Of a stretch of 62,970 nt of DNA, positions 7,376-46,964 are shown one piece after another (position 1 is the stretch's first letter; every line of letters begins with the position of its first letter). The position numbers were made by a program, and so were the translations under genes. The DNA is from an uncultured delta proteobacterium (GTDB lineage: Bacteria > Myxococcota > UBA727 > VGSZ01): positions 1-62,970 of the forward strand of contig CAVZJB010000015.1 of NCBI GenBank assembly GCA_963775425.1, read 5' to 3'. The notes below the pieces were generated by a model that was not told the origin of the DNA, made no database searches, and was given only the letters and a program-made list of their open reading frames with translations.

Positions 7376-7752
<377 letters not shown>

Positions 7753-9485: not shown

Positions 9486-9539
9486 TGCTGAAACAGCATA
9501 GAAGCGCCGATTCAGCAGGACATGACTGCCGTTTCAGCG
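9486..9539. promoter_or_regulatory. Three 13-bp palindromic boxes (YGCYG-WWW-CAGCR), candidate regulator binding sites
   Basis: tgctgaaacagca 9486-9498, cgccgattcagca 9505-9517, tgccgtttcagcg 9527-9539 in the divergent intergenic region. Confidence 0.6.
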
Positions 9540-9551
9540 TAGGCTCGGCGG

Positions 9552-10577
<1,026 letters not shown>

Positions 10578-10674
10578 CGCGCGCAGACGCCGCGCGCCCG
10601 ACGACGATGCCGCGCCCGATCGGCCGACGAGGACGGCTCCTGTCGCAGCCGTGACGAGGTGCTATAGACCGCGC

Positions 10675-11595: not shown

Positions 11596-11602
11596 CCTCG
11601 TC

Positions 11603-20775: not shown

Positions 20776-26526
<5,751 letters not shown>

Positions 26527-26540
26527 CGAGGGGGATCATC

Positions 26541-30651: not shown

Positions 30652-33415
30652 AGGTCCACCTCGGCGCCGATGAGCGGGAGGATCGGCGGGCCGGGGACCA
30701 GCGTGCGCAGCTCGCGCGAGCGGTAGTCGCCGCCGGGGAACACCACCTCGGGGTTCGGCCAGTTGTACACGTTGATCACCTCGAGGAACGTCACCAGCGA
30801 GCACCAGGAGAACGTGAAGCGCTTGTCCACGCGGAGGTCGAGCCGGTGGAACGGATCCAGGCGCGAGGACTGCAACGTCGACAGCACCGGTTGGTACGTG
30901 TCGCTGTTCAAGTCGTGTCCCGTGGTGATGGAGTCGGCGATGGGCCGCGGGTTGCCCGTGACGAAGGCGAAGCGGCCGCCGACGGTGACGTCCCAGGGCA
31001 GGCTCACGCGCGCCACGGCGACCAGGTTGTGGGTCTGGTCGAACGGGAAGATCACGCTCTTTTCGCGGTGGTCGCCGAGGCTCACCTCGGTGCGTGACAG
31101 CGTGTAGCTCACCCAGCCGAAGAAGTGCTTGGTGGGCGCCCAACGCAGGAACAGCTCGAGGCCGATGGTCTTGCCGGTGCCGAAGCTGTCGTAGCTGCCG
31201 AGCGTCGACAGCGGCGCGATGAGCTGCGGGTTGTCCGGCTGGAACAAGCGCGCGAGCTCCCGGGTGAGGCCCGTCCGCTTGATGCCGTAGACCTGCGCGT
31301 CGAGCGTGACGACGTCGGTGAGCTTGCTCTCGAAGCCGCCGATCACCTGGAACGCCTCGGGCGGCGCCAGCGGGTGGCCGTCGACGTCGTAGGCGGCGCT
31401 CTGCGCGCTCGGGCGCTCGTGAAACAGCCCGAAGGCGGCCTTGAGGGCGTAGCCGCGCACGGGCTGCCAGCGCACCGACACGCGGGGGTCGACGGTCCAC
31501 GCGTCCACCACGCTCTTGGGCCGGCCGTCGTAGATGGGCTTGCCCGTGTCGTCCTCGAAGGTGAGCGAGAACAGCTCCGCGCGGACGCCCGGCGTGATGC
31601 TCACGCCCGCGAGGGGGCCGAGCTGCAGCTCGCCGTAGAGCGCCGCCGTCGACAGGGAGGCGTCGGCGCCCGTGGGGACGTCCTCGGGGACCGCCCCCGC
31701 GAACAGGTCGCCGCCGGGGACGAGCGCGACGGAGTAGGCGGCGCCGTTGTGCTCGAAGCCCGCGAGCGCGCGCACCCACTCGTTGGGCCGCAGCTCGAGC
31801 TCGTCGCGCAGCCCCCAGTTCAGCTCGTCGGTGGGCGAGTCCAGGCTGCTGCCCGACAGCAACGGGACGGCGACGCCCTCGGACAGGAGCCCGCGGCGCG
31901 TGGTGCCCACCCAGGGGCGCAGCGTGTTGGTGACGCCGGGCAGGGGCTTCAGCTCCCAGGAGCCGAGCAACCGGTGGAAGCGGTTGCCGAGGAACGTGTT
32001 GAGGAGCGCCGTCGACGTCGATGGCGTCGCCGTTGGCGTCGAGGCCCGAGCGACGGCGCGTCGCCGAGCACGGCCCAACTGTCCTCTTCGCCGAACATGA
32101 ACAGCGCCAGGGTCGACGACGGAGACACCGGCGCCTCGAGCTTGAGCTGGTAGTCGTAGTACAGCGGCACCGGCAGGAAGGGACGGGCGCGCCGAAGGCC
32201 TGGACGAGCGGGAGCAGCAGCGCCGCGGGGATCTCCGCGTGAGAGCGGCGCGCCGCGAAGCCGATCTTGAGCTTGGGCAGGCTGTCCACCGGCCGCACGT
32301 GGCCGCCGAAGAAGAAGCCGAGGTCGAAGTCGTCGACGTCGAGCTTGGCGTGGAAGGTGTCGTCGTCGAGGGCGCGCGCCTTGACGTCGACGATGCCGGC
32401 GGTGGCGTTGCCATAGCGCACGGGGAAGCCGCCGGCCATGAAGTCGATGCGGTCGATGAAGTCGCCGTTGATGACGCTTGTGAAACCGCCGAAGTGATAG
32501 AGGACCGGGATGGGGACGCCCTCGAAGTGGATGGCGGTGTCGGCGGGGTAGCCGCCGCGCACCATCAGCGCGCCGCCGAGGAGCGGCGCGCGCGCCACGC
32601 CGGGCAGGCTCTCGATCACGCGCAGCGCGTCGCCGTAGGTGCCCGGGATGCCCTGCACCTCCGCGCGCGACAGCGACACGCGCGAGACCGGCGGCTCGCC
32701 GCGCTGCCGGCGCACCACCGTGAGGAAGCCGTTTTGCTCCTTCTGCACGAGCGCGACGTCGAGGTCGTGGCGCCCCGGCTCGTAGTACTCGTCGTCGGAG
32801 AACGGCTCGTATCCGGCCAGGCCCACCTCCACGCGGTACGGCCCCTCGGGGATGCCGTCGAGGCGGAAGCGGCCCTCGTCGTCGGTCATCACGGTGCGCG
32901 GCGGCCCCACCTGGTCGTGCTCGAGGAGCCGGCTGACGTCGACCTCGGCGCCGGCGAGCGGCTGCACGGTCCCCGCCTTGCGCACGCGGCCGGAGAGCGT
33001 GAACGGCTTGCCGGCTTCCACGGGGGCGGCGCCCGCGCCGTCCGCCGGCGCACCGCTGTTGCTTCGCGCGGCGGCTTGTCCGGCGCGGGGGACCTCGAAG
33101 GCGAGCTTGTAGTCGACGGTGACGGCGGCGGGCTTGCCGTCTACCTCGGCCGGCGAGAACACGAAGTTTGTGAGCGCGCCGAGGGCGGCCCAGTCGAGGT
33201 CGGCGCCGGCGCTGTCGACGACGTCGACGCGGGTGACGAGGCCTTCGTCGTCGAGGGTGACGCGCAGGCCGACCACGCCGCCGCGGCCCTCCTTGCGCGC
33301 GCTCTCGGGGTAGGCCGGCGTGACCTGCGTGACGACCGCGGGCGGCCTTGGTGAGGACGCCCTGCGCCGCCACCGAGGGCAGCACGGCGAGCGCCAGGAG
33401 CACGGCGAAGCTCAC
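30648..33415 (-). pseudogene. TonB-C domain + TonB-dependent receptor fusion with four single-base frameshifts (pseudogene or sequencing error)
   Basis: Signal peptide, PAYPESAR TonB-C, IPGTYGDALR..LPGV plug and barrel pieces lie in three frames; shifts near 33347, 32181, 32046, 32010. Confidence 0.85.
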
Positions 33416-34452
33416 GGGATGTCGCGCCCCTCGCCGAAGCCGAGCGCCCAGAACACGGGCGCGGGGTGCTCGTGGTCGAGCGCGGTCAAGAGATCGCGCA
33501 CGGGCTCGTCGTAGCCGTCGTCGGCGAGGCGAAAGGTGCCGAAGTGGATGCCCACGGCGACCCTTGCGCCGAGGTCCTTTTGCGCCTGCACCGCCTGCGC
33601 CGGCGAGGTGTGCACGCCGCCCATGAACCACTGCGGCCGGTAGGCCCCGATGGGCAGCATGGCGACGCGGATGCCGGGGAAGCGCCGCCCGATCTCGGCG
33701 AAGTGCGGGCCGTACGCGGTGTCGCCGGCGAAGTACGCGCGCCCCACCTTGGGGCTGTCGACGACGAAGCCGGTCCACAGGGTCTCGTCGCGGTCGCACA
33801 ACCCGCGGTTCGAGAAGTGTTGGCTCGGCACCGACGTGATCGTCAGCCCGGAGACCTCCGCCGCGCCCCACCAGTCGAGCGCGGTCGCTTCGATACCCTT
33901 GGAAGCAAGGAATTCATCATTTCCCAGCCCGGTGACGAACACCGGGTGGAAGGCGTCGCGCAGGCGCTCGAGCGTGGCCACGTCCATGTGGTCGTAGTGG
34001 TTGTGGCTGATGAGGACGACGTCGATGGGCGGGAGGTCCTCGAAGCGGATGCCCGGCGGGCGGACGCGCTTGGGGCCCGCGAACGACACCGGGCTCGCGC
34101 GCTCGCTCCAGATGGGATCGGTGAGGATGTTCTTCCCGTCCATCTGCAACAGGACGGTGGCGTGGTTCACGAAGGTGACGCGCATGTCGTCGACGCGCGT
34201 GGGCGGCTTGGGCCCGGGCTTTTCATCGATCCAGTCGGGCCACGCGCCGGGCTTCCGCGTGCGCATCCAGCGGAGCATCCCGCCGAAGCCGGACATGCGC
34301 CTGCCGGCCTGGTGGAACGTCTTGCCGTCGAAGTGGTCCGACACCGGCCCGTGGTAGCCAGGCGCCGACAGCGCGCAACACCCAAAGCCCGCGCCGGCGG
34401 CGACGAGCAGCACGACCAGCCCTGCAGCGACGACGAGGGCCCGGCGGAGCAT
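33412..34452 (-). CDS. MBL-fold metallo-hydrolase (RomA/NAPE-PLD-like)
   Basis: ILTDPIWS, SHNHYDHMD, YFAGDT, LPIGAY, IHFGTF; N-terminal signal/TM. Confidence 0.93.
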   Translation of the reverse strand: MLRRALVVAAGLVVLLVAAGAGFGCCALSAPGYHGPVSDHFDGKTFHQAGRRMSGFGGMLRWMRTRKPGAWPDWIDEKPGPKPPTRVDDMRVTFVNHATVLLQMDGKNILTDPIWSERASPVSFAGPKRVRPPGIRFEDLPPIDVVLISHNHYDHMDVATLERLRDAFHPVFVTGLGNDEFLASKGIEATALDWWGAAEVSGLTITSVPSQHFSNRGLCDRDETLWTGFVVDSPKVGRAYFAGDTAYGPHFAEIGRRFPGIRVAMLPIGAYRPQWFMGGVHTSPAQAVQAQKDLGARVAVGIHFGTFRLADDGYDEPVRDLLTALDHEHPAPVFWALGFGEGRDIP

Positions 34453-34503
34453 GCGGAGAGCGCCTCGTGGGGCCGGACGGGCGGCGGACGGCATCGCCCG
34501 AGT

Positions 34504-35961
34504 CTACGCCACCGAGAGCAGCGCGTCGGCCAGCCCGCGCAGGGCGGCGGGGTCGGCGGCGTCGATCTCCGTGTCGACGCCGCCCACCGACAGCGTCCAC
34601 GTGCGGCCGCCGACGCGCACCCAGGCCCGCAGCACCGCGTGGCCCTCGACCGCCGGACGCGCGCGCGGCGAGAACACCACCAGGCGGCGCCCGGGGACGT
34701 CGAGCGGCGACGGCCCCGCCAGGAGCAACTGCGCGCGGCGGTGGGCGATCTCCGGCTGCAGCGACAGCGCCAGCAACGCCAGCTCCTCCTGCACCACCGC
34801 CTGCTCCTCCTTCGACGACGGCGTCCCGTGACCGAGGGCGACGGTCACGAACGACCCGAGCGGCCCGAGGCCGTGCACCAGGTCGGCTTGCAGCCGCGTG
34901 CACAGCCCGAGCACGAGCACCAAGGTCTGCGCCGACAGCTCGGGCAGCTTGTGCCGCAGCTCGGGCGCACGATCGACGACCAGCGTGAGCACGCGGCGCT
35001 CCTCGAGGAGCGGGCTCTCGTCGCGCGTGTAATACAGCAAGCCGCCCTCGGCGAAGCGCACGTCGAAGAGGTCCACCGGCCTCTCCCCCGCCGCCGACGC
35101 GTCGTCGTCGATGCCGGCGCCGACGTACGCCACCTCGGAGCGCACGAGGTTCTCGAAGACGCCCTTGGTGCTCACCGCGTCGAAGCCGCCGGCGGGGTAG
35201 GCGTCGGCGCTCTCCTTGTCGAGCGGCACCTCGCGCACGCGCCGCAGGGCGAGCAGCGCCCCGGGTGGCGCCGCGCCCACGCGCGCGCTCACGGCGTGCA
35301 CGTCGCGGAGCGCGCGCCGGGCGCTCTCGCTCGGGACGTCCTCGAGGTGCGCGATGTCCCAGAGCTCCGCTTCGCCGTACAGCCGACGCGCGGCGAGGAC
35401 GGTCTGGCAGCGGGCCAGGGCGTCGAGGGCGTCCGCGGCCTGGGCCTCGTCAACGGCGTCGCGGATCTGCTCCACCGACGACATCGCGTCTCTCACGTCC
35501 TCGCTGTCGACGAGGGCGCGCACGTGCGCCGGGTTCAAGCGCGGCAGCGGGAGCTCGGCGAGGAGCGGCGCCAGCGCGAGCGCCACCGCGTGGGCGACCG
35601 CCCGATCGCGCAGCGCGAGAGGCGTGCCCGACACCGCGACGTGCGCTTCGAGCACCGTCGCGTCCGTGGCCCAGCGCGCCACCACGCGGTCCTCGTACGC
35701 GAGGCGCACCGCGCGCTCCTCGTCGCTCCACGTGGACACGTGCCTGGAAGAGGCGAAGCGCAGGTCGCGCCCGCGCACGAGCAGGTGACCGAGGTCGTGC
35801 ACGAGGAACAGCGGGATGTGGTCGTGGCCCTCCGACGTGATCAAGAACAGCCAGCGGAGGGCGTCGAGCGCCGCGCGCGGCAGCGCCTCGTCGGCCGCGA
35901 CCATCGACATAGACGCGAGGAGCGCCGGCAGCACCTCCGCGCGCGTGAGGTCGCGGCTCAT
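34504..35961 (-). CDS. Degenerate vWA-like component of FtsH ternary-type system
   Basis: ATGA overlap with MoxR gene; YPAGGF...KG.FENLVRSE, DLFDVRF.EG.LLYY.RDE; LVVDRAP in place of DxSxS. Confidence 0.7.
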   Translation of the reverse strand: MSRDLTRAEVLPALLASMSMVAADEALPRAALDALRWLFLITSEGHDHIPLFLVHDLGHLLVRGRDLRFASSRHVSTWSDEERAVRLAYEDRVVARWATDATVLEAHVAVSGTPLALRDRAVAHAVALALAPLLAELPLPRLNPAHVRALVDSEDVRDAMSSVEQIRDAVDEAQAADALDALARCQTVLAARRLYGEAELWDIAHLEDVPSESARRALRDVHAVSARVGAAPPGALLALRRVREVPLDKESADAYPAGGFDAVSTKGVFENLVRSEVAYVGAGIDDDASAAGERPVDLFDVRFAEGGLLYYTRDESPLLEERRVLTLVVDRAPELRHKLPELSAQTLVLVLGLCTRLQADLVHGLGPLGSFVTVALGHGTPSSKEEQAVVQEELALLALSLQPEIAHRRAQLLLAGPSPLDVPGRRLVVFSPRARPAVEGHAVLRAWVRVGGRTWTLSVGGVDTEIDAADPAALRGLADALLSVA

Positions 35962-36953
35962 CGCTTCTCGGCGGAAAAGCCCAGGAGCGCGCGCACCTTC
36001 GCGCGCACCGCGGGCAGCTCGTGCTTCCGGTTGCCGCAGTACGACAGGAGCAGCAGGTCCGGTGTGTCGACGGCGCCGCCGTGGAACAGGAACGCTCGTG
36101 TGCGGATGAGCTTGTAGAGCTTCACCAGCTTGCGGTCGGAGACGAGCACCTTGTCCTCGGTCTCGAGCGTGCGCACCACGCGCCGCATCTCCGCGAACGC
36201 CGGCGGCGGAAACGCCGCCGCCGCCGTCGCCTCGCCCTTGCCCTCGCGCGCGAACACGAGGTCCATGTAGCGCTTGATCTTGAGGTAGTCGTCGAGGCTG
36301 GCGCTGCCGCGCGCCCAGGGCCTCTGCCCGGTGGCGTTGAACGCCTCGTTGCGCATGCCCGCCTCGATGAGCTCGGCGAAGTGCGTGTCCTTCACCGGGC
36401 GCGTCTCCACCTTGAGGATGAAGCGGTCGGCCATCGCGTCGAGCTCGCTCTGCTCGGGGATGTCGTTGGTGGCCGCGAACAGGACCAGCAGCCTCACCGG
36501 CAGGGGCTCGCCGTCCTGGTAGTACTTGCGCTCGTTCAAGATGGTCAGGAGCGTGTTGAGGATGGCGCTGTTGGACTTGAAGATCTCGTCGAGGAACGCC
36601 ACCCGGCACTCGGGGAGCTTGCCGCGCGTCCGGCGGATGAAGCGGCCCTGCTTCAGGAGGTCGATGTCGATGGGGCCGAGGATCTCCGATGGCTCGGTGA
36701 ACTTGGTGAGCATGTACTCGAAGTAATCGTCATCGTTGAGGCCGGTGGACTCGACCCACTTCACCACGAGATCGCTCTTGGCCGTCCCCGGCGGGCCTAC
36801 GAACAAGAGCGGCTCCTGCGCCGCGGCGCAGAGAGACATGAGGTCGATCTCCTCGGCGCGGTTCACGAAGAACGCATTCAGATCGCGCCGGTGCTGCGCG
36901 ATGCGTCCGCGCACGGCGTCGATCTCCGGCTCGAGCTCATCCAACGACCACAT
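35958..36953 (-). CDS. MoxR/RavA-type AAA+ ATPase
   Basis: GPPGTAKS, LTKFTEPSEILGP, FLDEIFKSNSAILNTLL, ATN, DRF, SDRK. Confidence 0.95.
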   Translation of the reverse strand: MWSLDELEPEIDAVRGRIAQHRRDLNAFFVNRAEEIDLMSLCAAAQEPLLFVGPPGTAKSDLVVKWVESTGLNDDDYFEYMLTKFTEPSEILGPIDIDLLKQGRFIRRTRGKLPECRVAFLDEIFKSNSAILNTLLTILNERKYYQDGEPLPVRLLVLFAATNDIPEQSELDAMADRFILKVETRPVKDTHFAELIEAGMRNEAFNATGQRPWARGSASLDDYLKIKRYMDLVFAREGKGEATAAAAFPPPAFAEMRRVVRTLETEDKVLVSDRKLVKLYKLIRTRAFLFHGGAVDTPDLLLLSYCGNRKHELPAVRAKVRALLGFSAEKR

Positions 36954-36988
36954 CGCGCCCTCCGATGACGCGGGGAGCAAGCCCCCGC

Positions 36989-39900
36989 CTACGTCGTTGT
37001 GGGACCCTGGCACAACAGCCTCCACTGCTGAAGGATGCGGCGCCGGATGACCTGCTCCTCCGCGTCCAGGTACGCCTGCAAGCGGTCGCTGCGCAGGGTG
37101 ACGTCGTCGACCAGGGTCTCCACGAGGCGCTCCGCGATGAGCAACTGGTGCGTGGCGAAGAAGCGGCTGGTGGTGAACGTATCGGTGAAGCGGGTGAGGT
37201 TGGCCGCGATGGTCTCGCACTGCTGTGCGCGCGCCTCGAGGTCCCAGTGTTTGAGCGCCTCGAGGATGGCGGCGCCAGCTTCGTAACGTTCGACGTGCGA
37301 GCTCGAGAGCGCGCGCTGGAGCGCGTGCTCCACCAACATCTGCGCCCGCTCGACGTCACCGAGCTGGAGGAAGCCGTCGGAGAGGGCGGCGAGGAGCGGG
37401 CCGTTTTCGCGGTCGCTCTGCAGCGCCACCGGCTCGAGCGACGACAGGAAGCGCTGCGCGGCCTCCGCCGCGCCCAGGCGCCGCAGGGCGGCGAGCGCGG
37501 GCTTCACCGCGGAGAGCAGATCGCGCACCGAGGGGACGTTGGGGCTGCGGGCGGCGGCGGCGATGCCGTCGAGGCATTGATCGACGAGCTCCGCGTCCTC
37601 GAGCGTGGCGGCGGCGCGCACGCAGGCGCCGAGCACGCGCACGCGGTGGGCGAGGATCTTGATGCGCGGCAACCCCTTGACGGTGGCGAGCGTGGTGGCG
37701 CGGATGAGCTCGTCGCGCCCCGACGCGAGGGCGGCGCGCAACAGCCGCTCCACGGCGCCGGCGACCTCGTAGTCGTACAGCGTGGTGATCTCCTGGATGC
37801 GTGCCGTGGCGGCCGGCGCCTCGTCGACGTTGCGCTCGGCGTCCTGCACCGTTCGCTCGAGCGCGGGCCGCAACGCCTGCGGCATCTCCTCGGGCGGGCT
37901 GGCGCGCAGCCACAGCGAGCGCTTGGTGAGCCACTCGACCACCCGGCGGTCCTCCGGGCGCGGCAGCGACGCGACCACGGCATCGACCTCCTTCTTCCAC
38001 GCTTCGACGGTTCCTTTGGTGAGGAAGTGGGACAGCCGCGCGATGTACAGCCGCAGGAGCGCGCGGATGGGCGCCTCGACGTGCGCGTCCAGCTCGGCCT
38101 CCAGCGCGCGCACGACGTCGGGCGCCTTGCCGCCGAGGCGGCCGAGGCCGACGGCGAAGATGGCGCGCAGGAAGGCGTCGTGGGACTCGGTGAGCTTGAG
38201 GGGCTGCGGCACCAACTTGGCGAACAGCCGCTCGAGGTGCACGAGCTGCTCGTGGCGCGAGCGGTCCACGGGCGCTGCGTCGTCGCCCGGCATCAACGCC
38301 AGCGACGTGCGCACGAAGCGCGGCAGGTCGAGCGTCTCCGAGAGGCCGCGGGCGTTGAGGATGCCGAGCACCGTCTCCTTGGCGCGGGTGGCGCCGAGGC
38401 TGTCTCGCGAGCGCGCGCAGATGGCGTGCAGCACGCTCCACTGGAGCCGCCCCCCGACGAGGAGCCCGTCGCGCAGGAACGTCTTCTGGGCGTGGTGGAG
38501 GATCTCCTCGTCGACGTCGTCGCCGGCCTCGAGCCCCGCCACCACGCGCGCCGCGAGGAGCGACGTGTGCTCGCGCGTGAGCGACGCGGGGTCGGCCAGC
38601 GCGAGCTCCACGAGCGACGTTTCGGCGAGGCCGCCGCCGTGTTCGAGGGAGCGCAGGGCGCGCGCGAGCTCGGCGGCGGCGCCGGGCTCGCCGAGGAACG
38701 TGGACACCTCGAGGCAGGCGCAGGCGTCGTCGGTGTCGTCGAGGGCGAGCTGCAAGCGGCCGAGCTCGTGCCACGCTGCGCCGTCGCCCGCCGACGTCGA
38801 CAGGACCTGGGCTTCGAGCACGCGGCTGCGCGCCCGCATCGCTGCCACGTCCTTGCTCGTGTCGACGTCGACCGTGGTGTCGCGGACCAACGGTGTCCGC
38901 TGGGCGACGGCTGGCGTGCGGGGCGATCGAGGGGCGCGCGCCTCGGCGGCCACCGCCGCGGCCGGATCGGTCCGCTGGACGGGCCGCTCGATGACGACGC
39001 CGGGGAACGATGCCACGGCGTCCTCGAGCAGGCGGTCGAGCTCCGCGCGCCGGTCGGTGGCGATCCACGTCGTGAAGCGCGACAGCGGCGCGTCCTCGAG
39101 CGTCGCGATGCTGATGACGCGCAGCCCGTCGCCGTCCTCGTCGACGACGACCGCGGCCGCGTCGTCGAGCCCGAGCAACGCCTTCAACTGGTCACGCGCG
39201 AGCTGGGGGACGAGGCGGCGCGCGGGCGGCAGGTAGAGGTTGTCGAGCGCGGGGGCGCGCGCGAAGCCCGGCGCGTCGACGAGCGACGCGATGCGGGGCC
39301 CGAGGCGCTGGAGCTGCGGGCGGATGGCCTCGCGCACGACGTACTGCGGGCGGCCGTCGACGCCGGCGACGCGCGAGACGAGGACGCGGCCGACCTCCTC
39401 GGCCGGGCTCGTGCTCACGAAGTCCTCGAGCTTGAAGAGCTGCTCCGGCGACAAGACCCACAGCTCGGGGTCCGCGGGCTCGGCGGTGCCGAGCCGGAGC
39501 CGCACGGGGAACGACAGCGCGCCCGCGGCCGGCGCGAGCACGTCGTGGCGCGCGGCGAGGTTCGGCCGCACGGCGTCGAGGATGGGGCGCAACCCCCACG
39601 CCGCCGTCGGCGACAGCAGGGTCATGCGCCCGTCTTCGTCGACGACGGCGGCGCGCCCCGCCTCACGGAGCCGATCTTCGAGCAGCGCCGCGAGCGGGTG
39701 GGCCGTGCCCCACGCGGTGAACAACGGGGACGCGGCCGAGGAGCGCGCGAACACCCGCACGCCCTCGCCCTCCTCGTCGCGCGCCCGCAGCAGCAGGTAC
39801 AGCGGCGGCGTCGCCACCCGCACCACCACGCGCGCCTCGGTGGTGGGGCGCGCGGCGTCCGTCCCCGTCGTCGCCGGGCCCTCCCCGGCGGACCCGGTGG

Positions 39901-40393
39901 GCCACCCGACCTCGCCGACGAGCGCGTCGTCCCGGTCGAGCAGCAGCAGGCGCTCGAGCGTGCGCTGCGCGCCGCCGCCGTCGACGTCGGCGACGAAGAG
40001 CGCCTCCGCGGGCACGCTGTCGGCGACGCGCACCGGCCGCACGGCCTCGAGCAGGCCGCGCGCGGGCCGCACGCGCGGCGAGCGCGAAACGGCGGGGATG
40101 CCGGCGGCCGCGGCGAGCGCCAGGTCGCCGAAGGCGGCGCCGCCGGCGTCTTCGACGCGGGCGCCTTCGAGGTGGGCGCCTTCGAGGTGGGCGTCTTCGA
40201 GGTGGATGACGTCGAGGCCGCGGCGCACGAGGTCGAGCGCCGTGTCCTGATCGAGCGCGTCGGTGAAGAGATAGACGCCTTCCGGCCCCGCGTGCTCCTC
40301 CCACGAAGCGTCCACGACGTGCGGCGCGCGCGCCGCCAACGTCGACAGCGCCGCCTTGTCCTTCTCCGTCAGCGAGAGCCGCAGCCCGAACAC
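36989..40393 (-). CDS. Large (1134 aa) protein of FtsH ternary-type operon; helical-repeat C-terminal half
   Basis: Long ORF tightly coupled in the operon; NLYLPPARRLVP, LDLPRFVR, YLDAEEQVIRRRI segments. Confidence 0.8.
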   Translation of the reverse strand: MFGLRLSLTEKDKAALSTLAARAPHVVDASWEEHAGPEGVYLFTDALDQDTALDLVRRGLDVIHLEDAHLEGAHLEGARVEDAGGAAFGDLALAAAAGIPAVSRSPRVRPARGLLEAVRPVRVADSVPAEALFVADVDGGGAQRTLERLLLLDRDDALVGEVGWPTGSAGEGPATTGTDAARPTTEARVVVRVATPPLYLLLRARDEEGEGVRVFARSSAASPLFTAWGTAHPLAALLEDRLREAGRAAVVDEDGRMTLLSPTAAWGLRPILDAVRPNLAARHDVLAPAAGALSFPVRLRLGTAEPADPELWVLSPEQLFKLEDFVSTSPAEEVGRVLVSRVAGVDGRPQYVVREAIRPQLQRLGPRIASLVDAPGFARAPALDNLYLPPARRLVPQLARDQLKALLGLDDAAAVVVDEDGDGLRVISIATLEDAPLSRFTTWIATDRRAELDRLLEDAVASFPGVVIERPVQRTDPAAAVAAEARAPRSPRTPAVAQRTPLVRDTTVDVDTSKDVAAMRARSRVLEAQVLSTSAGDGAAWHELGRLQLALDDTDDACACLEVSTFLGEPGAAAELARALRSLEHGGGLAETSLVELALADPASLTREHTSLLAARVVAGLEAGDDVDEEILHHAQKTFLRDGLLVGGRLQWSVLHAICARSRDSLGATRAKETVLGILNARGLSETLDLPRFVRTSLALMPGDDAAPVDRSRHEQLVHLERLFAKLVPQPLKLTESHDAFLRAIFAVGLGRLGGKAPDVVRALEAELDAHVEAPIRALLRLYIARLSHFLTKGTVEAWKKEVDAVVASLPRPEDRRVVEWLTKRSLWLRASPPEEMPQALRPALERTVQDAERNVDEAPAATARIQEITTLYDYEVAGAVERLLRAALASGRDELIRATTLATVKGLPRIKILAHRVRVLGACVRAAATLEDAELVDQCLDGIAAAARSPNVPSVRDLLSAVKPALAALRRLGAAEAAQRFLSSLEPVALQSDRENGPLLAALSDGFLQLGDVERAQMLVEHALQRALSSSHVERYEAGAAILEALKHWDLEARAQQCETIAANLTRFTDTFTTSRFFATHQLLIAERLVETLVDDVTLRSDRLQAYLDAEEQVIRRRILQQWRLLCQGPTTT
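40159..40203 (-). repeat. 15-bp tandem repeat x3 encoding HLE(D/G)A
   Basis: gggcgccttcgaggt at 40159 and 40174; gggcgtcttcgaggt at 40189. Confidence 0.9.
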
Positions 40394-40394
40394 G

Positions 40395-40661
40395 TCATCC
40401 CTTCGCCTTCACCGCCTCGCGCGCGGCAGGGGCGCGGTCGCCCTCCACCGTGCCGACCTTCTGCCCATCCTTCTGCACGCGCTCGACGACGATCTCGCCC
40501 ATGTCCTCGGTGACCGGCATGCCGAGGATGCTCTCCACGAGCTTCTTGTGGTCCTGCTCGTGCTCGTGCGGCAAGGCGTCGGCGTCGCTCTCGAGGTGGA
40601 TGACGATCTCGCGCTTCCCCGTGGTGGCGTCGCGACGAAAGCGAATGGTGATCTCGGCCAT
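40395..40661 (-). CDS. Small protein of FtsH ternary-type operon (88 aa)
   Basis: MAEITIRFRRD.TTGKREIVIHLESDADALPHEHEQDH; GGAGGGG RBS; ATG 2 bp after upstream stop. Confidence 0.85.
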   Translation of the reverse strand: MAEITIRFRRDATTGKREIVIHLESDADALPHEHEQDHKKLVESILGMPVTEDMGEIVVERVQKDGQKVGTVEGDRAPAAREAVKAKG

Positions 40662-40663
40662 GG

Positions 40664-42829
40664 CTAGTTCCCCTCCACCGTCACCGGCACGCCGGCCGTG
40701 GGCGCCGTGGGCGCCGCGGGCGCCGTCCCCGCCTTCAGCGAAGCGAGGGCGGTCGCGTCGAGCACCTTCTTTTCGAGCAGCATCTCCACCAACGCCGCGT
40801 GCAGCGCCTTGTGCTCGCGCAGGAGCGTGCGGGCGCGCTCGATCTCCGTGCGCAGGATCTCGTCGATGGCGCGGTCCACCTCCGCCCAGCGCTCCTGCGA
40901 GAGCTGGTCGTGCGCGCGCTCGTCCTCGAGGAGCACGCGCGGCGGGAGCCCGTCCACCATGCCGTGGCCCACCACCATCGCGCGCGCGGTCTGCGTGCAG
41001 CGCTGCAGGTCGCCGTAGGCGCCGATGGAGATGTCGCCGCACACCATGCGCTCGGCCTCCATGCCGCCGAGGCCGACGCAGATCTCCGCGTGCAGCTCCT
41101 CCGCCGTGATGGCGTAGGGCCGCTGGCGCGCGACGCGCAAGACGTAGCCGAGGGCGCCGTCGACGTCGGAGCTGATGGTGATCTTCTCCGGCGGCGTGGC
41201 CTTTGGCAGCACCATGGCCAGGATGGCGTGCCCCGACTCGTGCACGGCGATCACCCGCTCCTCCGCCGGGCTCAACACGATGGGGCGCCGCGTCTTCCTC
41301 TGCAGCGCCTTGTCGACATCGTCCTGGGTGAAGGCGCCACCGGAGGCGAAGCGGCCCGGCGCGCGCAACTGCTGGCGCTTGAGCGCGCGGCAGACGGCGT
41401 AGATGTGGTCGCCGGTGAAGGGGATGCCCTTTTCGCGGTCGGCGTAGCCCTCGGTGCGGCGCACGAGGTGCGCGATGATCTTGTCGTCGAGGCCGAGCCC
41501 CATCTTCTTGTTGTAGATGTCGAGGATGGCCTTCCTGTCCTCCTGCGTAGGCGCCGGGATCTCGATCAAGAACTCGAAGCGCCCCGGGCGCATGAGCGCG
41601 CCGTCGAGCGACTCGAGGAAGTTGGTGGTGCCCACCACGAAGATCATCTCGTTCTTGCGAAAGCCGTCCATCTCCGTGAGGAGCTGGTTGACCATCGAGT
41701 GCTCGACGCCGCTGCCCGAGTAGGTGCCGCGCTGGTGCGCGAAGGCGTCGATCTCGTCGAAGATCACGACCGCCGGCGCCGCCTGCCGCGCGCGGCGGAA
41801 CACGCGCCGCAGGTTCTCCTCGCTCTCGCCTACCCATTTGCTCTTGAGCTCGGGTCCGCTGACGATGATCACCGTGGCCGACAGCGACGTGGCGATGGCC
41901 TTGGCGAAGTAGGTCTTTCCGGTGCCCGGCGGCCCGTAGAAGATCACGCCGCGCGGCAGGAGGTTCTCGAGCTCCTTGATGTCGGTCTCGTCCTTGATCT
42001 TGTCCTTGCCGAGCACCAGATCGACGAGGTCCTCCTTCAAGCGCTCCTTCACCTCGCCGTAGCCCCCGATGTCGTCGTCGAGGCTGACGTTGGGAAGCTC
42101 GAGGTCGTCGCGCACCGTCTGCTTGCGGATCTCCCGGTAGATCTCGTCGGCGCGCGGCCGCCCGGGCTGCGCCTCGTGCCGGTGCGCGAGCTCGGAGAAG
42201 ATGCGCCGGCAGCGCACGGGGTTGAGGCCGGAGACGTACTTGTAGAGCGCGAAGGGATCGAATTCGGTGGCCGAGATGGCCCGCGCCTCCCGCTGCGTGA
42301 TGATCTTCTCCAGGGCCTCGCGCGGGATGCCGGTGATCTCGCGGCGCGCGGCGAACACGCCCTCGATGACCTTGGGCATGTCGAAAGTGGGATCGCGAAA
42401 CGCGAGGACGGTGGCCTCGGGGTTTTCGAACAACAGCGGGATGGTCTCGCGCGCCTCCAGCGTCAGCCCCGACGTCGTGGTGGTGAGCACGTCGAGGTGC
42501 GGTAGCACCAGCACGGTCTTGTCGACGCCGGAGCGGATGGCGGCGGCGAGCTGCTCGATCATCCGTCCCATCTGCCCGCCCGCGCGCTCGTCGTCGGGGC
42601 CGGGGCGGCCGTCGACGAGGACGAGCTTGGGCCCGTCTTGCTTCTTCAGCCGCTGGCGGATGCCGATGAACAAAAAGAGCGTGAGCTCCTTGTCGCACTC
42701 CACCACCACGCTCTGGCCGCGCAGCAGACGCTCCTCGATGAACGTGAGGTCGGCGGCGCAGGCCGCCTCCACCGCGTCTTCGATGCTCAGCTCCACGGGC
42801 AAAGACGTGATGGGGACGGTCCTCGTCAC
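40664..42829 (-). CDS. Soluble FtsH-like AAA+ ATPase / M41 metalloprotease
   Basis: YGPPGTGKT, IFDEID, TTN...D.ALMRPGRF, AVHESGHA, GG.EAE, GAYGDL; no TM segments; degenerate AAA-like N-domain. Confidence 0.93.
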   Translation of the reverse strand: MTRTVPITSLPVELSIEDAVEAACAADLTFIEERLLRGQSVVVECDKELTLFLFIGIRQRLKKQDGPKLVLVDGRPGPDDERAGGQMGRMIEQLAAAIRSGVDKTVLVLPHLDVLTTTTSGLTLEARETIPLLFENPEATVLAFRDPTFDMPKVIEGVFAARREITGIPREALEKIITQREARAISATEFDPFALYKYVSGLNPVRCRRIFSELAHRHEAQPGRPRADEIYREIRKQTVRDDLELPNVSLDDDIGGYGEVKERLKEDLVDLVLGKDKIKDETDIKELENLLPRGVIFYGPPGTGKTYFAKAIATSLSATVIIVSGPELKSKWVGESEENLRRVFRRARQAAPAVVIFDEIDAFAHQRGTYSGSGVEHSMVNQLLTEMDGFRKNEMIFVVGTTNFLESLDGALMRPGRFEFLIEIPAPTQEDRKAILDIYNKKMGLGLDDKIIAHLVRRTEGYADREKGIPFTGDHIYAVCRALKRQQLRAPGRFASGGAFTQDDVDKALQRKTRRPIVLSPAEERVIAVHESGHAILAMVLPKATPPEKITISSDVDGALGYVLRVARQRPYAITAEELHAEICVGLGGMEAERMVCGDISIGAYGDLQRCTQTARAMVVGHGMVDGLPPRVLLEDERAHDQLSQERWAEVDRAIDEILRTEIERARTLLREHKALHAALVEMLLEKKVLDATALASLKAGTAPAAPTAPTAGVPVTVEGN

Positions 42830-43356
42830 GCTTTGACCTTGATGGTGATCTCGAGCGAGCCGTCCTGTCCGCGCGTCTCCTGCATGGACTGCACGGAGCC
42901 CATCTGCGCCGCCTTCTGCTTGAGCGCCTCGACGTAGACGCGCTGCGCGGCGTCGTCGAGCTCGCTGCGCACGGCGGGCTCGGCGCGCGCGAGCTGACGC
43001 GTGGCACGCACCTTGGCCTCCTTCTTGGCGTCCTCGCTGCGCTTGTCGAGCGCGGCCTTGGCCTCTTGATCGGTGCGGCCGACGCCCGAGACCTCCTGCT
43101 GCGTCTGCAGCCTGACCGTCACGCTCTTGCCGTCCTTGTCGAGGACGGCGACGGCGTCTTCGCCGAGAGACTTCTCGAGCGTGCCGTCTTTGCCGTCGCG
43201 CCACCCGCGGTCCTTGAGCGTCTGCCGCACGATGTCGCGCATGTCGCCCTCGGGGAGGATGGGCAGCATGTCGAGGCCGATGCACAGCGTGTCGCTGGCG
43301 GTCACGGTTCCGCGGGCGACCTGCATGGGGACCTGAATTCGATAACCACGGCTCAT
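42826..43356 (-). CDS. Hypothetical protein of FtsH ternary-type operon
   Basis: MSRGYRIQV, LPILP...M, EALKQKAAQMG motifs; GTGA overlap downstream. Confidence 0.85.
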   Translation of the reverse strand: MSRGYRIQVPMQVARGTVTASDTLCIGLDMLPILPEGDMRDIVRQTLKDRGWRDGKDGTLEKSLGEDAVAVLDKDGKSVTVRLQTQQEVSGVGRTDQEAKAALDKRSEDAKKEAKVRATRQLARAEPAVRSELDDAAQRVYVEALKQKAAQMGSVQSMQETRGQDGSLEITIKVKA

Positions 43357-43359
43357 GGC

Positions 43360-44463
43360 TCACCCTACCGCGCCCGAAAGTACGCGCGCGAGACCCTCGA
43401 CGTCGGCGCGTGTCGACGCGAGCTCGGCCTCGATCATCGGCACGACGACCTGCGCTTCGGCGTAGCGTTCGTCGCCGTATCTCTCCCGGCCGAGGCGCGC
43501 ACGGGCGTCGTCGACGAACAGCCGCAGATCGACGACACCGAGCATGGCGCGCAGCGCCTCGTCGCGATCGGCCATGCCGCTCGTGCCCGGCAGCCGCAGC
43601 GCGTGGTTGCGCACGTCGAGCCCGGCGGGGAACGCGCGCTTTGGAAGGCACGCGAGGAATCGAACCACCGAGCGCGACAGGTCGAGCCGGCCGTGCGCGT
43701 CGAGGAGCTCGAGCCAGACGCGCAGCGTACGAGCGAACGCGCGCATACCGGCGAGGAAGCGTTGCCGCACGCGGGTGTGGAGCAGCACCTGGCGGAACCG
43801 GGACAGCCACGCCTCGAGCAGGGCGTCGTCGACGCACTCGAGGACGCGCAGCGCGCCCGGCGCCATCAGCGCGCGCAGCGACGCGCGGACCGTGTCGTCG
43901 TCGAACGCGGCGTCGTCCGGCGCGAACAGCAGCGCCAACGGCGCCGCCCGCCGCAGCTCGTGCCGCAGCGCCTCCTCGAGCGCCGGGCCGAGGTGCAGGG
44001 ACGCGGCGTGCTGGTGCGCGAGGGCGAAGAAGACCAGATCGCCGACGCCGTCCGAGCCTTCGGGGGCGAGGGAGCGCACCACCCGGCGCTCCTCGCGGCC
44101 GAGCTCGCCGCCGGCGCGCTTGCTGTGCGCGAGCGGCACGAGGTCGCGCACAGTGGCGTGCCAGAAGGAGCGGGTGGCGCGGGTGAAGCGCAGGTCGAAG
44201 CTGTCGTTGAGCGAGGCGTCCCACAGCCGCCCGGACTTGCGCTTGCCGTCGCGCAAGACCGTGCGCTCGCGGCCGCCGCCGCTGCGCAACAGGAACTGCA
44301 CGGCGCCGGCGGCGACGGTGCGCGCCACCGCCTCGAGCAGGGCGTCGCTCGGCGCGGCGACGTCGATGCGCGGCGGCAGCGCGGGCGCCCGGCCGTGCCC
44401 CACGAGGAGCTCGGCGATGCGCAGGGCGTCGCCCTCGACGGCGCTGAGGTGCAGTTGCGTCAC
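43360..44463 (-). CDS. Hypothetical protein of FtsH ternary-type operon
   Basis: GTG overlaps the radical SAM stop; GGGRER..LR.G....GRLWD, GRLDL, YGDERY.EAQ. Confidence 0.8.
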   Translation of the reverse strand: MTQLHLSAVEGDALRIAELLVGHGRAPALPPRIDVAAPSDALLEAVARTVAAGAVQFLLRSGGGRERTVLRDGKRKSGRLWDASLNDSFDLRFTRATRSFWHATVRDLVPLAHSKRAGGELGREERRVVRSLAPEGSDGVGDLVFFALAHQHAASLHLGPALEEALRHELRRAAPLALLFAPDDAAFDDDTVRASLRALMAPGALRVLECVDDALLEAWLSRFRQVLLHTRVRQRFLAGMRAFARTLRVWLELLDAHGRLDLSRSVVRFLACLPKRAFPAGLDVRNHALRLPGTSGMADRDEALRAMLGVVDLRLFVDDARARLGRERYGDERYAEAQVVVPMIEAELASTRADVEGLARVLSGAVG

Positions 44464-45050
44464 GGAATCACCGTGAGCGCCCCCTTGACCGGGTAGCCGT
44501 TGACCGTGACGACGCCGTTTTTGAGCCGGATCTCGAGGGTGTTGTCCTCGGCGAAGCGCGGGTCGCCGGGGTGGTAGCGCTCGCTCAAGAAGTGCAGCTC
44601 CTGGTTGTCGGAGCCGATCCACCGCCGGCTCGTGGTGCGGCGGGCCTCGAGGTAGCGCCCATCGACGAGCAGGTCCGTGTGCGCGAGCAGGTCGTCGACG
44701 GCGGGGTCTTTTCGCCCGCGCAGCTCCGCGAGCGTGTAGCCAGAAAAGACCATGACGCTCTTGCCGTGGGCGCGAACGCCCCGTGCGACGGCGGCGAGGC
44801 CGGCGGCCTGGGCCGTGGGCTCGCCGCCGAGGAAGCTCACGCCCTCGACGCCGGCGGCGGCCGCCTGCGCCACCAGCGCCGACGCGCGCATCGGCGTGGC
44901 GTCCTGTTGCGGGAGCATCTCGGGGTTACAGCAGCCGGGGCAGCGAAAGGGGCAGCCCTGGACCCACACGGCAAATCGCACACCTGGGCCTTCTGCCTCG
45001 GTCCTGGGCACGACCAGGGCGACCTGGAGAGACGGATCTGCCGGGATCAC
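44460..45050 (-). CDS. NrdG-like radical SAM (activase-type) protein
   Basis: EGPG.RFAVWVQGCPFRCPGC, GVSFLGGEP, DLLVDGRY, WIGSDNQ. Confidence 0.93.
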   Translation of the reverse strand: MIPADPSLQVALVVPRTEAEGPGVRFAVWVQGCPFRCPGCCNPEMLPQQDATPMRASALVAQAAAAGVEGVSFLGGEPTAQAAGLAAVARGVRAHGKSVMVFSGYTLAELRGRKDPAVDDLLAHTDLLVDGRYLEARRTTSRRWIGSDNQELHFLSERYHPGDPRFAEDNTLEIRLKNGVVTVNGYPVKGALTVIP

Positions 45051-45149
45051 AACGCCAACCAACCGCCATTCCTCAGGGTTACATCCACGTACCACCACCG
45101 ACAGGGAAACGGGCGTTTTCGGTGGTTAGTCTGTTGGAGAGGTGACCTG

Positions 45150-45479
45150 ATGCGCAAGACGTACCGACTGCAGACCTGGCGCGGCTGGGATCGTCGCATC
45201 GACGCCTGCGCGCGCGACTTCGAAGCGGAGTTCGGGGTCACGCCGAACCTGCTCGTGGCCAACAACGCGACCCTTCGCCGCATGAACGTCGCGGCCGACA
45301 AGGCGCGGGTCGGCAACGACAAGGGCGAGGAGCCGACCGGCTACGTCGAGCTGAAGGGCTTTGCCACGAGCGACTACGAGCTGCTGTTCGTGCAAGAGGA
45401 CGAGGTGCCTGAAAACAGCTTCGCACTCATCCACGCCTTTGGCATCGACGAGGACGCGGAGCTCGTCGCCACGGTGTGA
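45150..45479 (+). CDS. Hypothetical protein (109 aa)
   Basis: GGAGAGG RBS before ATG; divergent from the operon. Confidence 0.75.
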   Translation: MRKTYRLQTWRGWDRRIDACARDFEAEFGVTPNLLVANNATLRRMNVAADKARVGNDKGEEPTGYVELKGFATSDYELLFVQEDEVPENSFALIHAFGIDEDAELVATV

Positions 45480-45483
45480 GGCC

Positions 45484-46338
45484 CTACGCGGCGGCGCGCG
45501 CGGCGTCGACGGCGGCGGGCTCTCCCGAGAGGGTGAGGATGGCCCGGCGCACCTCGGCCATGAGCGCCTCGACGGTCTTTCCCTGCGTGTCGATGGGCGC
45601 GCCGAAGTGCACGGTGCAGGTGCCGTCGTAGCGCACGACGAACTGGTCCGGCGGCAGGATGTCGCGCGCGCCGTCGATCCAGGCGGGCACGATGGGGACG
45701 CCGAGGTCGCGGGCGACGTGAAAGCCGCCCTTCTTGAAGGGCGCGAGCCTGCCGTCACGCGAGCGCGTTCCTTCGGGTGAGATCCAGATGGAGACGCCGC
45801 TTTCGAGCTGCTGCTTGGCGAGCTGGAGCTGCGCGATGGCCTTGTCGCGGTTCCTCCTGTCGACGGGGACGAAGCCCGACGCCACGAGCGCCTGCCCCCA
45901 CACCGGCACCTTGGTGAGCTCCTCCTTGAGCACCATGCGCAGGGAGCCCGGCACCGTCCCCATCATGGCGGGGATGTCGATGAGGGAGCCGTGGTTCGAC
46001 ATCACGACGTAGGCGCGCCCCTTCTCGAAGTGGCGGCGCCCGGTCGCCTGAAGGCACGCGTTGCCCGAGCGAAAGATGCGCGTCCAATAGCTCTCGAGCA
46101 GGCGGTCGCCCAACGCGACCGATCCCTTGCCGCGCAGCGCGCGCGAGAGGAACCGCGCGGAGATGTCGAGCGTGTAGAACATGGTCCGAAACACCGGCAT
46201 GCGATCGGCGCGGCGAGGCACGGAGGGCGCGCGGGACGCGGGGAGCACGATCTCGACGTCGCTCATGGGCATACGGTGCGCGCCCTTCGTCACGGGAGTG
46301 TCAGGAAGGGGCAAAAACTCCGTCTGGAAGGGCCTCAT
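45484..46338 (-). CDS. Lysophospholipid acyltransferase (PlsC family)
   Basis: NHGSLID, PVDR, SPEGTRS, PFKKGGF, VPIVP; start uncertain. Confidence 0.93.
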   Translation of the reverse strand: MRPFQTEFLPLPDTPVTKGAHRMPMSDVEIVLPASRAPSVPRRADRMPVFRTMFYTLDISARFLSRALRGKGSVALGDRLLESYWTRIFRSGNACLQATGRRHFEKGRAYVVMSNHGSLIDIPAMMGTVPGSLRMVLKEELTKVPVWGQALVASGFVPVDRRNRDKAIAQLQLAKQQLESGVSIWISPEGTRSRDGRLAPFKKGGFHVARDLGVPIVPAWIDGARDILPPDQFVVRYDGTCTVHFGAPIDTQGKTVEALMAEVRRAILTLSGEPAAVDAARAAA

Positions 46339-46358
46339 CGCGCCTGCTAAAAAACCGG

Positions 46359-46964
46359 ATGCGCCTCTTTCTCGTCGCCGCTGCCGTCGCGGCGTGCGCG
46401 GCTTGCCCCCAGCCGACGTGCGAGCAAAAGAGCAACCTGCTCGTGAAGGACGCGTGGACGCGGGTCGAGCCCGCCGACGACCCGTTCGCCTCCGACGCCC
46501 CCGCCGGGCTCGTCGAGAAGGACGCCGACGGCCACTACCCCCCCGACGACCCCGGGAGCGACACGCCCCACGACGTCCGCGTCTGCACCGACGCGGAGGT
46601 CTACACCGAGGTGCTCGGGAAGGACGACAGCCTCACCGTCGACACCAACCTGTGCGGCTGGGCCACGGTGGAGCAACCCCTCTCCGCCGACGTCGCGGAG
46701 GGCGACCCCATGTTCGCCCGGGTCTTCTACTTCCAGCAGATCGCGCCCGGCATCGCCGAGGCCCACCTCGAGCTCACCGTCGACGGGAAGCCGTTTTGGA
46801 CCCGCACCATCCCGCTGCCGACGCCCTCGCAGCTCATCGCCGAGGACTTCGACGCCCCCTTCAGCGCCAAGAAGGGCCAGACGTTGATGTGGCACGTCGA
46901 TAACCACGGCGTGAACACGTACAACCTCATCGAGATCTCGAAGAAGACCTGTCCGAAGGGTTGA
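46359..46964 (+). CDS. Hypothetical lipoprotein
   Basis: Hydrophobic leader with CAAC; C-terminal HVDNHG. Confidence 0.75.
   Translation: MRLFLVAAAVAACAACPQPTCEQKSNLLVKDAWTRVEPADDPFASDAPAGLVEKDADGHYPPDDPGSDTPHDVRVCTDAEVYTEVLGKDDSLTVDTNLCGWATVEQPLSADVAEGDPMFARVFYFQQIAPGIAEAHLELTVDGKPFWTRTIPLPTPSQLIAEDFDAPFSAKKGQTLMWHVDNHGVNTYNLIEISKKTCPKG

Follow-up and report, generated by a model that had tools for sequence, protein, structure and literature searches.

The window analysed here, a 62,970-nucleotide stretch of DNA from an uncultured delta proteobacterium (Myxococcota; UBA727; VGSZ01; contig CAVZJB010000015.1 of assembly GCA_963775425.1), contains an unbroken run of eight co-directional minus-strand genes (Table 1), which is almost certainly a complete and intact FtsH ternary system of the 'simple' radical S-adenosylmethionine (SAM) subtype (vWA-MoxR subsystem 3). 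Such systems were predicted computationally by Kaur, Burroughs, Iyer and Aravind (eLife, 2020; PMC7159879). The window has a G+C content of about 70%, which crowded the raw lists of open reading frames (ORFs), and the gene models and the extent of the run, positions 34504 to 45050, were resolved using a GC3 frame plot together with the translations. From the first gene to the eighth, the junctions consisted of a 4-bp overlap, a 3-bp gap, a 4-bp overlap, a 2-bp gap, a 1-bp gap, a 35-bp gap and a 4-bp overlap, confirming the gene sizes, the order and the overlaps or gaps of 1–35 bp given in a preliminary description of the stretch made without database searches. A scan of the sequences detected no hydrophobic segment resembling a membrane span in any of the eight proteins, which are therefore probably cytosolic.

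Table 1. Coordinates of the eight-gene operon and of neighbouring features in the window (aa, amino acids; values after family names are E-values, followed by residue ranges where given)
Feature	Position	Strand	Size	Matches and remarks
Gene 1, radical SAM enzyme (rSAM)	44460-45050	-	196 aa	GTG start
Gene 2, fvmX6 (X6)	43360-44463	-	367 aa	Pfam fvmX6 1.4e-13
Gene 3, fvmX5 (X5)	42826-43356	-	176 aa	Pfam fvmX5 1.5e-32
Gene 4, FtsH-like protease	40664-42829	-	721 aa	Pfam AAA 8.8e-41 (295-425), Peptidase_M41 6.8e-36 (518-696)
Gene 5, fvmX3-analog (X3a)	40395-40661	-	88 aa	Pfam fvmX3-analog 3.2e-29
Gene 6, fvmX7 (X7)	36989-40393	-	1134 aa	Pfam fvmX7 7.2e-19 (124-422)
Gene 7, MoxR-class AAA+ ATPase	35958-36953	-	331 aa	bpMoxR 5.3e-58, AAA_5 9.1e-21, AAA_lid_8 1.4e-08
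Gene 8, ivWA	34504-35961	-	485 aa	ivWA-helical_N 1.3e-27 (9-241), ivWA 2.3e-37 (256-419)
Metallo-beta-lactamase (MBL)-fold hydrolase	33412-34494	-		Lactamase_B_2 6.8e-41; N-terminal membrane or signal segment
Putative operon promoter region	45051-45149	-	~100 bp	Between rSAM start and 109-aa ORF
Divergent ORF	45150-45479	+	109 aa	Coding-like GC3 signal; within 433 bp upstream of rSAM gene
IS66-family element	4536-7247	+		TnpB_IS66, DDE_Tnp_IS66; 27 kb from the system
Phage-type integrase	61511-62686	+		Opposite window end; not adjoining the system

All eight proteins scored over the gathering cut-off of curated Pfam families, with E-values of 1e-13 to 5e-58 excluding chance. Seven of the matched families, fvmX6, fvmX5, fvmX3-analog, fvmX7, bpMoxR, ivWA and ivWA-helical_N, were built for the system itself, and it is because these system-specific families scored over their cut-offs, in an architecture as in PMC7159879, that the locus was assigned to it. 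In its description of the simple subtype, that paper lists a highly divergent vWA domain, whose metal-chelating aspartates can be absent, following a large N-terminal domain of all-alpha fold; a radical SAM enzyme that stands alone and is of the activase (Memo-Ammecr1-related) type; a MoxR ATPase, the P-loop of which often reads GxxxTAKS; and an FtsH component with an active AAA+ domain plus an inactive, N-terminal second AAA+ domain that has lost its P-loop as well as its Walker B motif. The same source names deltaproteobacteria (myxobacteria) and planctomycetes among the clades with the system, reports its statistical link to multicellular bacteria and the presence of adaptor domains common to conflict systems, and places the NEFF1 effector in only a subset of simple-type systems. 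Compared with that description, the operon has the same components, among them an activase-like radical SAM enzyme and an FtsH-type protein with an N-terminal part devoid of a P-loop, and the same Pfam families, architecture and clades, and differs in no respect of kind; the locus adds a member to a computationally defined kind, and the system itself is not new. The preliminary description had named the Aravind-group system and proposed a Pfam search for its fvmX families, and the seven dedicated families, including the four X families, all over the gathering score, together with the published description and the co-occurrence of the genes in other genomes, bear its identification out. To the published description of the system, the present analysis appears to add strict genome-level co-occurrence despite dispersal, the apparent lack of a glycyl-radical client in the genome, the invariance of the X5 N-terminus and an H-E-x-x-H motif in X3a.

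As those systems are described in print, the operon shares with the VMAP, iSTAND and beta-propeller vWA-MoxR ternary systems the MoxR-vWA core, a presumed ATP-driven switch, and with the beta-propeller type also the bpMoxR family and the GxxxTAKS P-loop. However, its third component is an FtsH-type protease, and it lacks the EAD adaptors and the caspase, TIR and nuclease effectors that accompany the core in those systems. In agreement with the earlier remark that no nuclease effector is recognisable, the eight genes gave no match to a nuclease, TIR or pore-forming domain in Pfam or PADLOC, and no enzyme fold was matched by the models of X5 and X6. There was likewise no unexplained effector-like match in the eight genes or their flanks, among which no search aimed at NEFF1 was made.

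The distribution of the system was surveyed in a 301-genome sample of the phylum, the same sample being used for fvmX5 (matches over the cut-off) and ivWA (E ≤ 1e-10); kin in this sample are not independent, so the counts show a pattern and not a statistic. Both fvmX5 and ivWA were present in the identical 66 of the 301 genomes, with zero discordant cases and a single copy in most of them. An orthologue of rSAM (E ≤ 1e-30) was found in 63 of these 66 genomes, the three misses being drafts, one of which has a fragment at a contig end. X5 and ivWA were no more than 8.9 kb apart, as they are in the window, in 27 genomes, 9–12 kb apart in 6 and 15–29 kb apart in 10, and the two genes were on different contigs in 23, some of which are merely fragmented assemblies. 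The preliminary description had stated that its proposal would fall if the genes did not co-occur as a unit elsewhere; they co-occur in other genomes.

Examination of individual loci by tblastn demonstrated all eight genes, with their order unchanged, in L053, L063 and L064 (L numbers denote loci and G numbers genomes), three loci from a Myxococcaceae-like, large-genome family of the same phylum, and Pfam confirmed the X families in L053. Seven of the eight genes were found in L055 and L060. In Gemmataceae, loci L001–L004 retain rSAM-X6-X5-FtsH-X3a-X7 in order, L003 additionally MoxR, and ivWA is present in five of five genomes, away from the cluster and, in one complete chromosome, about 4 Mb from it. 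Within the phylum, fvmX5 was carried by 57 of the 115 sampled f14 genomes and by 6 of the 10 genomes of the window's own family, comprising 6/6 of the sister genus g4, 0/3 of g3 and 0/1 of g2. In genus g4, the operon is split into rSAM-X6-X5, FtsH, X3a-X7 and MoxR-ivWA, on up to four contigs (G005): rSAM-X6-X5 is isolated within the 12–20 kb of DNA examined, MoxR-ivWA is on another contig and X3a-X7 on a third, and the FtsH gene accompanies X3a-X7 in G003 and G007 and occupies a fourth contig in G005 and G009. Other arrangements also exist, such as X5-FtsH-X3a apart from rSAM-X6. Close homologues were labelled by their sources as Myxococcota or as metagenome-assembled genomes of Myxococcales, and five of 13 loci (L008, L010–L013) contained only a weak X5-like match.

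Some neighbour relations were constant or nearly so. MoxR adjoins ivWA in every locus containing both, X3a is directly 3' of the FtsH gene in every locus shared by both, and rSAM adjoins X6 in most loci containing both, with the exception of L062, where they are about 250 bp apart; L058 has X6 without rSAM. In both of the phyla concerned, the gene set behaves as a single functional unit. That the parts are kept together where they are not linked speaks strongly for a single functional set, and the eight proteins very probably act as one machine; since all eight are co-retained even when unlinked, they are to be studied as one set.

Genes beyond the eight were seen at some of these loci. A calpain-type cysteine protease gene is upstream of rSAM in L056 (14693-15670), a C92 papain-like amidase gene occupies the usual rSAM position in L058 (3368-5158), and a WGR-domain protein gene is directly past ivWA in L053 (3061-4413) and L055 (15070-16434); each may be an optional effector. 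A second locus of genome G227 (L057, 10676-13137) encodes a divergent X5-like protein of 200 aa, without the MSR-x-Y start, and an X3a-like protein of 108 aa that has lost H-E-x-x-H and has a His-rich tail, with no FtsH gene, and it adjoins genes for a 509-aa radical SAM enzyme of another type and a polysaccharide deacetylase. In L058 and L059, the two copies of the system in genome G134 (9% contamination), the FtsH-like gene aligns as two pieces in different frames, which may reflect a frameshift or an assembly error.

The FtsH-like protein consists of an N-terminal domain without a P-loop (residues 1 to about 230), an AAA+ domain and an M41 zinc protease domain. The Walker A motif (299-306, G299-T306), Walker B residues D358-E359, pore loop W332-V-G, R414 and R417 (the Arg fingers), H530-E-x-x-H534 and E591/E593 were invariant in all 14 homologues aligned, which come from two phyla. 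The pore loop, K-W-V-G, presumably resembles that of Cdc48 or Vps4. Residues 253-695 align with solved FtsH structures, and the protein shares with canonical membrane FtsH (TIGR01241, which acts with HflK/HflC) the AAA+ plus M41 module and all catalytic motifs. However, it scored 281.7 bits against TIGR01241 (cut-off 600), and because this match is confined to profile positions 162-596, the transmembrane and periplasmic part of canonical FtsH is considered to be missing. In its place, the protein has an extra 230-residue N-terminal domain, which is strongly conserved, with many invariant positions, has no GKT P-loop and gave no match in Pfam or in a PDB profile search.

The MoxR-class ATPase has a variant P-loop, GPPGTAKS, at residue 53 and a Walker B motif, LDEI, at residue 121, and the RavA model NF010054 matched its N-terminal ATPase part only, under the cut-off. 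Its neighbour ivWA combines an N-terminal helical region with a divergent vWA domain. In a nine-sequence alignment, the metal-ion-dependent adhesion site (MIDAS) motif DxSxS of ivWA was not conserved, the first-strand Asp varying and the Ser positions being missing, and G258-G259-F260, E270-N-L-V and D297-L-F-D...Y311-T-R-D-E-S316 were invariant. A MoxR AAA+ gene adjoining the gene of a vWA partner is likewise found in RavA-ViaA, CbbQ-CbbO, NorQ-NorD and CoxD-CoxE, in which the vWA partner couples MoxR to its target. Those pairs mature a defined enzyme via an intact MIDAS, whereas the operon has a MIDAS that is not conserved, no linked client enzyme and six further dedicated proteins. Judged from sequence, all catalytic motifs of the three enzymes (FtsH-like protease, radical SAM enzyme and MoxR) are intact and conserved, and the catalytic activities that can be recognised are limited to those predicted for two ATPases, a zinc protease and a radical SAM enzyme.

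In rSAM, residues 33-40 form a CX3CX2C motif and residue 75 marks a GGEP motif, both invariant in 15 of 15 orthologues. The enzyme is 49-61% identical to system-linked orthologues from two phyla. It matched the Pfam families Fer4_12 (1.2e-30) and Radical_SAM (1.2e-07), and Pfam detected no SPASM or ribosomally synthesised and post-translationally modified peptide (RiPP)-recognition domain in it. The best NCBIfam match was NrdG TIGR02491 (2.1e-25; 89.5 bits, cut-off 126.1). Other activases of glycyl-radical enzymes came next (PflA 3e-13), all under the cut-off, and a QueE model also matched (2.6e-4). rSAM is therefore like NrdG and PflA in size, in CX3CX2C and GGEP and in its best profile matches; unlike them, it is under every NCBIfam cut-off and is linked to X6 and X5, and no NrdD or Gly_radical protein was found for it to act on. 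Searches with working positive controls, the one for NrdD giving a match in 6 of the 14 control genomes, detected neither NrdD nor a Gly_radical domain in the genome of the window (completeness 94.55%), and no NrdD was found in five of five other system-bearing genomes, three of them complete. A true NrdG was considered and rejected on the score under the TIGR02491 cut-off and the genome without NrdD. The enzyme thus appears to have no classical glycyl-radical client in the genome, and for that reason its substrate is to be sought among X5, X6 and X3a. We favour X5 or X6, a protein of the system, though as a tentative guess.

X5 is predicted to be an alpha+beta protein, with a beta-sheet and a 57-residue helix, and its model has a predicted local distance difference test (pLDDT) score of 89.0 overall and of 59 over residues 1-10. 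These first residues contain the arm M-S-R-[G/A/S]-Y, present in every full-length homologue seen in the alignment and in a listing of N-termini. A search of 1.84 billion proteins returned 747 cluster representatives of the family at E ≤ 0.001; the best 150 of these were nearly all 170-200 aa long and started at residue 1, and a small number were longer, apparently owing to mis-called starts or to a frameshift. No X5 fusion was found in the search for longer X5-containing proteins, and the only X6+X5 protein in that set (P0209, 573 aa) was set aside because it looks like a frameshifted read-through. Foldseek found no PDB match to the X5 model at E ≤ 0.001, and VIA-align gave a best Z of 7.5 (root-mean-square deviation 3.6, 100 residues aligned) to generic alpha+beta domains, which is within the stated noise of the tool.

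The AlphaFold model of X6 is all-alpha with one beta-hairpin (pLDDT 92.9; predicted template modelling score, pTM, 0.91) and again had no Foldseek match in the PDB at E ≤ 0.001; an X6 homologue in the ESM Atlas had a poor model (pLDDT 0.37), with all matches below 0.9, and hhalign detected no homology of X6 to X7 or ivWA. In a 19-sequence alignment of X3a, the core residues D28, L30, E33, H34 and R61 were invariant and E35 and H38 nearly so, H34-E35-x-x-H38 forming an H-E-x-x-H motif, and the C-terminal tail was variable. X7 has few invariant polar residues in its alignment, a weak TPR_19 match under the cut-off and no PDB relative by sequence, and is probably a helical scaffold or sensor. In the loci compared by tblastn, X5, X6, X7 and ivWA were 25-37% identical where the enzymes were 48-54%.

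The small proteins bear on a scheme predicted by Kaur et al. (PMC7159879), in which rSAM would modify a small stand-alone protein, here X3a or X5, and a protease would free the modified peptide as a toxin or an amplifying signal, with the MoxR-vWA-FtsH core controlling the step. Small proteins of 88 and 176 aa do flank the protease gene, X3a joins a conserved core to a fast-varying tail, and the X5 terminus is invariant and flexible. However, the module as described in that paper includes a zincin peptidase of its own and a peptide that is conserved at the C-terminus, whereas the operon has no separate peptidase and X3a is conserved in its N-terminal part and variable in its tail. Furthermore, the X5 model is a confident 176-aa domain rather than a leader plus core peptide, rSAM is of the activase type without a SPASM or RiPP-recognition domain, and no exporter gene is contained in the operon, which together make peptide maturation unlikely, though still a serious rival.

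Considering these results, we propose the following scenario for the simple-subtype FtsH ternary machine of the window. The MoxR hexamer, together with the vWA adaptor and its degenerate metal site, may act on a large assembly as a switch or loader powered by ATP, and X7 would be the probable scaffold of this assembly. The membrane-less FtsH-type unfoldase-protease would be the executing enzyme, and X3a, owing to its constant position directly 3' of the FtsH gene where both are shared and its variable tail, may be the adaptor, inhibitor or first substrate of that protease. The NrdG-like rSAM, nearly always paired with X6, would abstract a hydrogen atom from one of the system's proteins, the best candidate target being the flexible, invariant X5 N-terminal arm. 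The output would be triggered proteolysis of host or invader proteins, in conflict or stress. As a whole, this is the best explanation of the locus, with a probability of roughly 0.55, and the working model of an ATP-driven cytosolic proteolytic machine, switched by MoxR-vWA and with rSAM acting on the system's own small subunit, is the most likely one. For its parts, we put a role in defence or conflict at about even odds, and proteolysis as the output at slightly less than even; the preliminary description's proposal of anti-phage defence, kin conflict or regulated death, possibly with a proteolytic output, coincides with the published hypothesis. A more specific version, a radical-gated proteolytic switch, in which rSAM held by X6 would place a protein radical or a covalent mark derived from one on the X5 arm, the FtsH N-domain would read the mark, and MoxR-ivWA would load or release the complex on X7, is very unlikely. 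If true, it would be the first case of activase-type radical chemistry signalling regulated proteolysis instead of making a catalytic glycyl radical.

Several results weigh against the proposed machine or its role. No experimental study of an FtsH ternary system was found in the full-text literature, just as the preliminary description had known of no characterisation, and PADLOC-DB 2.0 has no fitting system model: six of the eight proteins had no match in it, the others being generic AAA models (IetA, TRIP13) to the FtsH-like protein and a pVip-kinase match to rSAM (E 0.004). An AAA fold was not found in the FtsH-like N-domain, which hhalign aligned with the protein's own AAA domain at 0.75% probability. 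The X5 arm has G, A or S at its fourth position, which is evidence against a glycyl radical of the classical type. The Pfam survey of the flanks revealed no other defence gene in the neighbourhood of the operon, tblastn returned no match of ivWA among 72,556 plasmids or of X5 among 50,697 phage records, and dispersal with all parts kept is not what mobile defence cassettes usually show and is equally compatible with a resident machine. In addition, 17 of the 235 system-negative genomes carry an rSAM orthologue, 41-54% identical, and the rSAM tree is an unresolved polytomy in which system-linked and stand-alone enzymes are not separated; the stand-alone orthologues and this tree imply that the substrate of rSAM need not be a protein of the system.

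Eight stand-alone rSAM loci were examined, and in these the gene is among housekeeping genes or adjoins Clp-type ATPase genes. In L065–L070 (family f19 and relatives), enzymes 47-52% identical by tblastn are encoded next to transketolase, pyrophosphatase or rubrerythrin genes in genomes without the system, and in L071 and L072, distant rSAM relatives adjoin AAA_2/ClpB-type ATPases. NrdD was present in one of five tested system-negative genomes with a stand-alone rSAM. The NrdG-like enzymes next to Clp-type unfoldases in L071 and L072 suggest a wider, undescribed partnership of such radical SAM enzymes with unfoldases. The 17 close orthologues in system-less genomes are also what would be expected if rSAM made a metabolite or nucleotide, viperin-like or a second messenger, to be sensed by the ATPases or to block the invader, its substrate then being possibly common to all cells, and the weak viperin-kinase match in PADLOC (E 0.004) and the QueE match (2.6e-4) are compatible with this. 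The models of protein-activating enzymes were nevertheless far stronger (NrdG 2e-25, PflA 3e-13), rSAM nearly always adjoins X6, which has no enzyme fold, and Pfam revealed no CARF, SAVED or cNMP-binding sensor domain in the operon, so that a small-molecule product is highly improbable.

The profile of the FtsH-like N-domain identified one viral contig, L073 (IMG/VR, 113 kb, CheckV completeness 55%), which, at 6292-13104, carries an X3-analog (3.4e-20) and an FtsH-like AAA/M41 protein, 48% identical to that of the window over its whole length. A different, 295-aa radical SAM enzyme adjoins the FtsH-like gene there, ivWA was not found in the contig, and the X5 profile had no match in viral contigs. 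This partial viral copy is one of the points against a purely resident role, in which the proteins would form an assembly or quality-control machine, serving a cellular complex, whose FtsH-type protease clears failed products, with no part in conflict. A resident machine would account for the ordinary chromosomal context, for the lack of plasmid or phage-record matches, for the single copy in most genomes and for the retention of every part where, as in genus g4, they are scattered across as many as four loci or, as in a Gemmataceae chromosome, ivWA is about 4 Mb off; furthermore, the known MoxR-vWA pairs are maturation factors. However, the system is patchy among close relatives (57 of 115 f14 genomes; none of three and none of one in two genera of its own family), its non-enzymatic subunits diverge fast, and no client gene is conserved, the gene after ivWA being for an MBL hydrolase here and for WGR, GNAT or unknown proteins elsewhere. 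Together with the multicellularity link and the adaptor domains common to conflict systems in the account of Kaur et al. (PMC7159879), these observations make a housekeeping role improbable, though it too is a serious rival.

The FtsH ternary system is a large, enzyme-rich predicted conflict system of multicellular bacteria, and its compact, intact eight-gene copy in the window is a concrete construct for expression and mutation; many further copies are available in complete genomes of the large-genome family of the same phylum, probably Myxococcaceae. The only recognisable executing activity is that of an ATP-dependent zinc protease. If the system proves to be a defence or death machine, bacterial immunity would gain a mechanism that is both proteolytic and dependent on radicals; if it proves to be a housekeeping machine, the published prediction would be corrected.

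The MBL-fold hydrolase gene is a ninth minus-strand gene that begins 9 bp past the ivWA stop, and on account of this strand and distance it is probably co-transcribed with the operon; in tblastn searches with the MBL protein, no searched locus had this gene next to the system. The intergenic region upstream of the rSAM gene (Table 1) probably contains the operon promoter, and a sigma-70 consensus scan of 32800-46500 gave no promoter-like match. Terminator-like matches fell inside genes and were disregarded. The divergent 109-aa ORF matched no Pfam family at E ≤ 1e-6 and was not near the system in any locus fetched. The flanks are ordinary chromosome, with genes for a PlsC-type acyltransferase, an M50 peptidase, a TonB-dependent receptor and lipoate and 2-oxoacid dehydrogenase functions.

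Elsewhere on the plus strand of the window, positions 9552-13968 look like a separate operon, in which a sigma-54 activator (341 aa) precedes another radical SAM enzyme of 306 aa, unrelated to rSAM, a protein of 608 aa whose cytidylate-kinase-like match is weak, and an unknown protein of 180 aa. A 1879-aa thrombospondin type 3 repeat protein (TSP_3 1e-83), followed by a 941-aa outer-membrane beta-barrel protein, is encoded at 20887-29348, and 48847-52556 encodes two tandem paralogues (678 aa and 558 aa) that contain DUF4140 and DUF4139.

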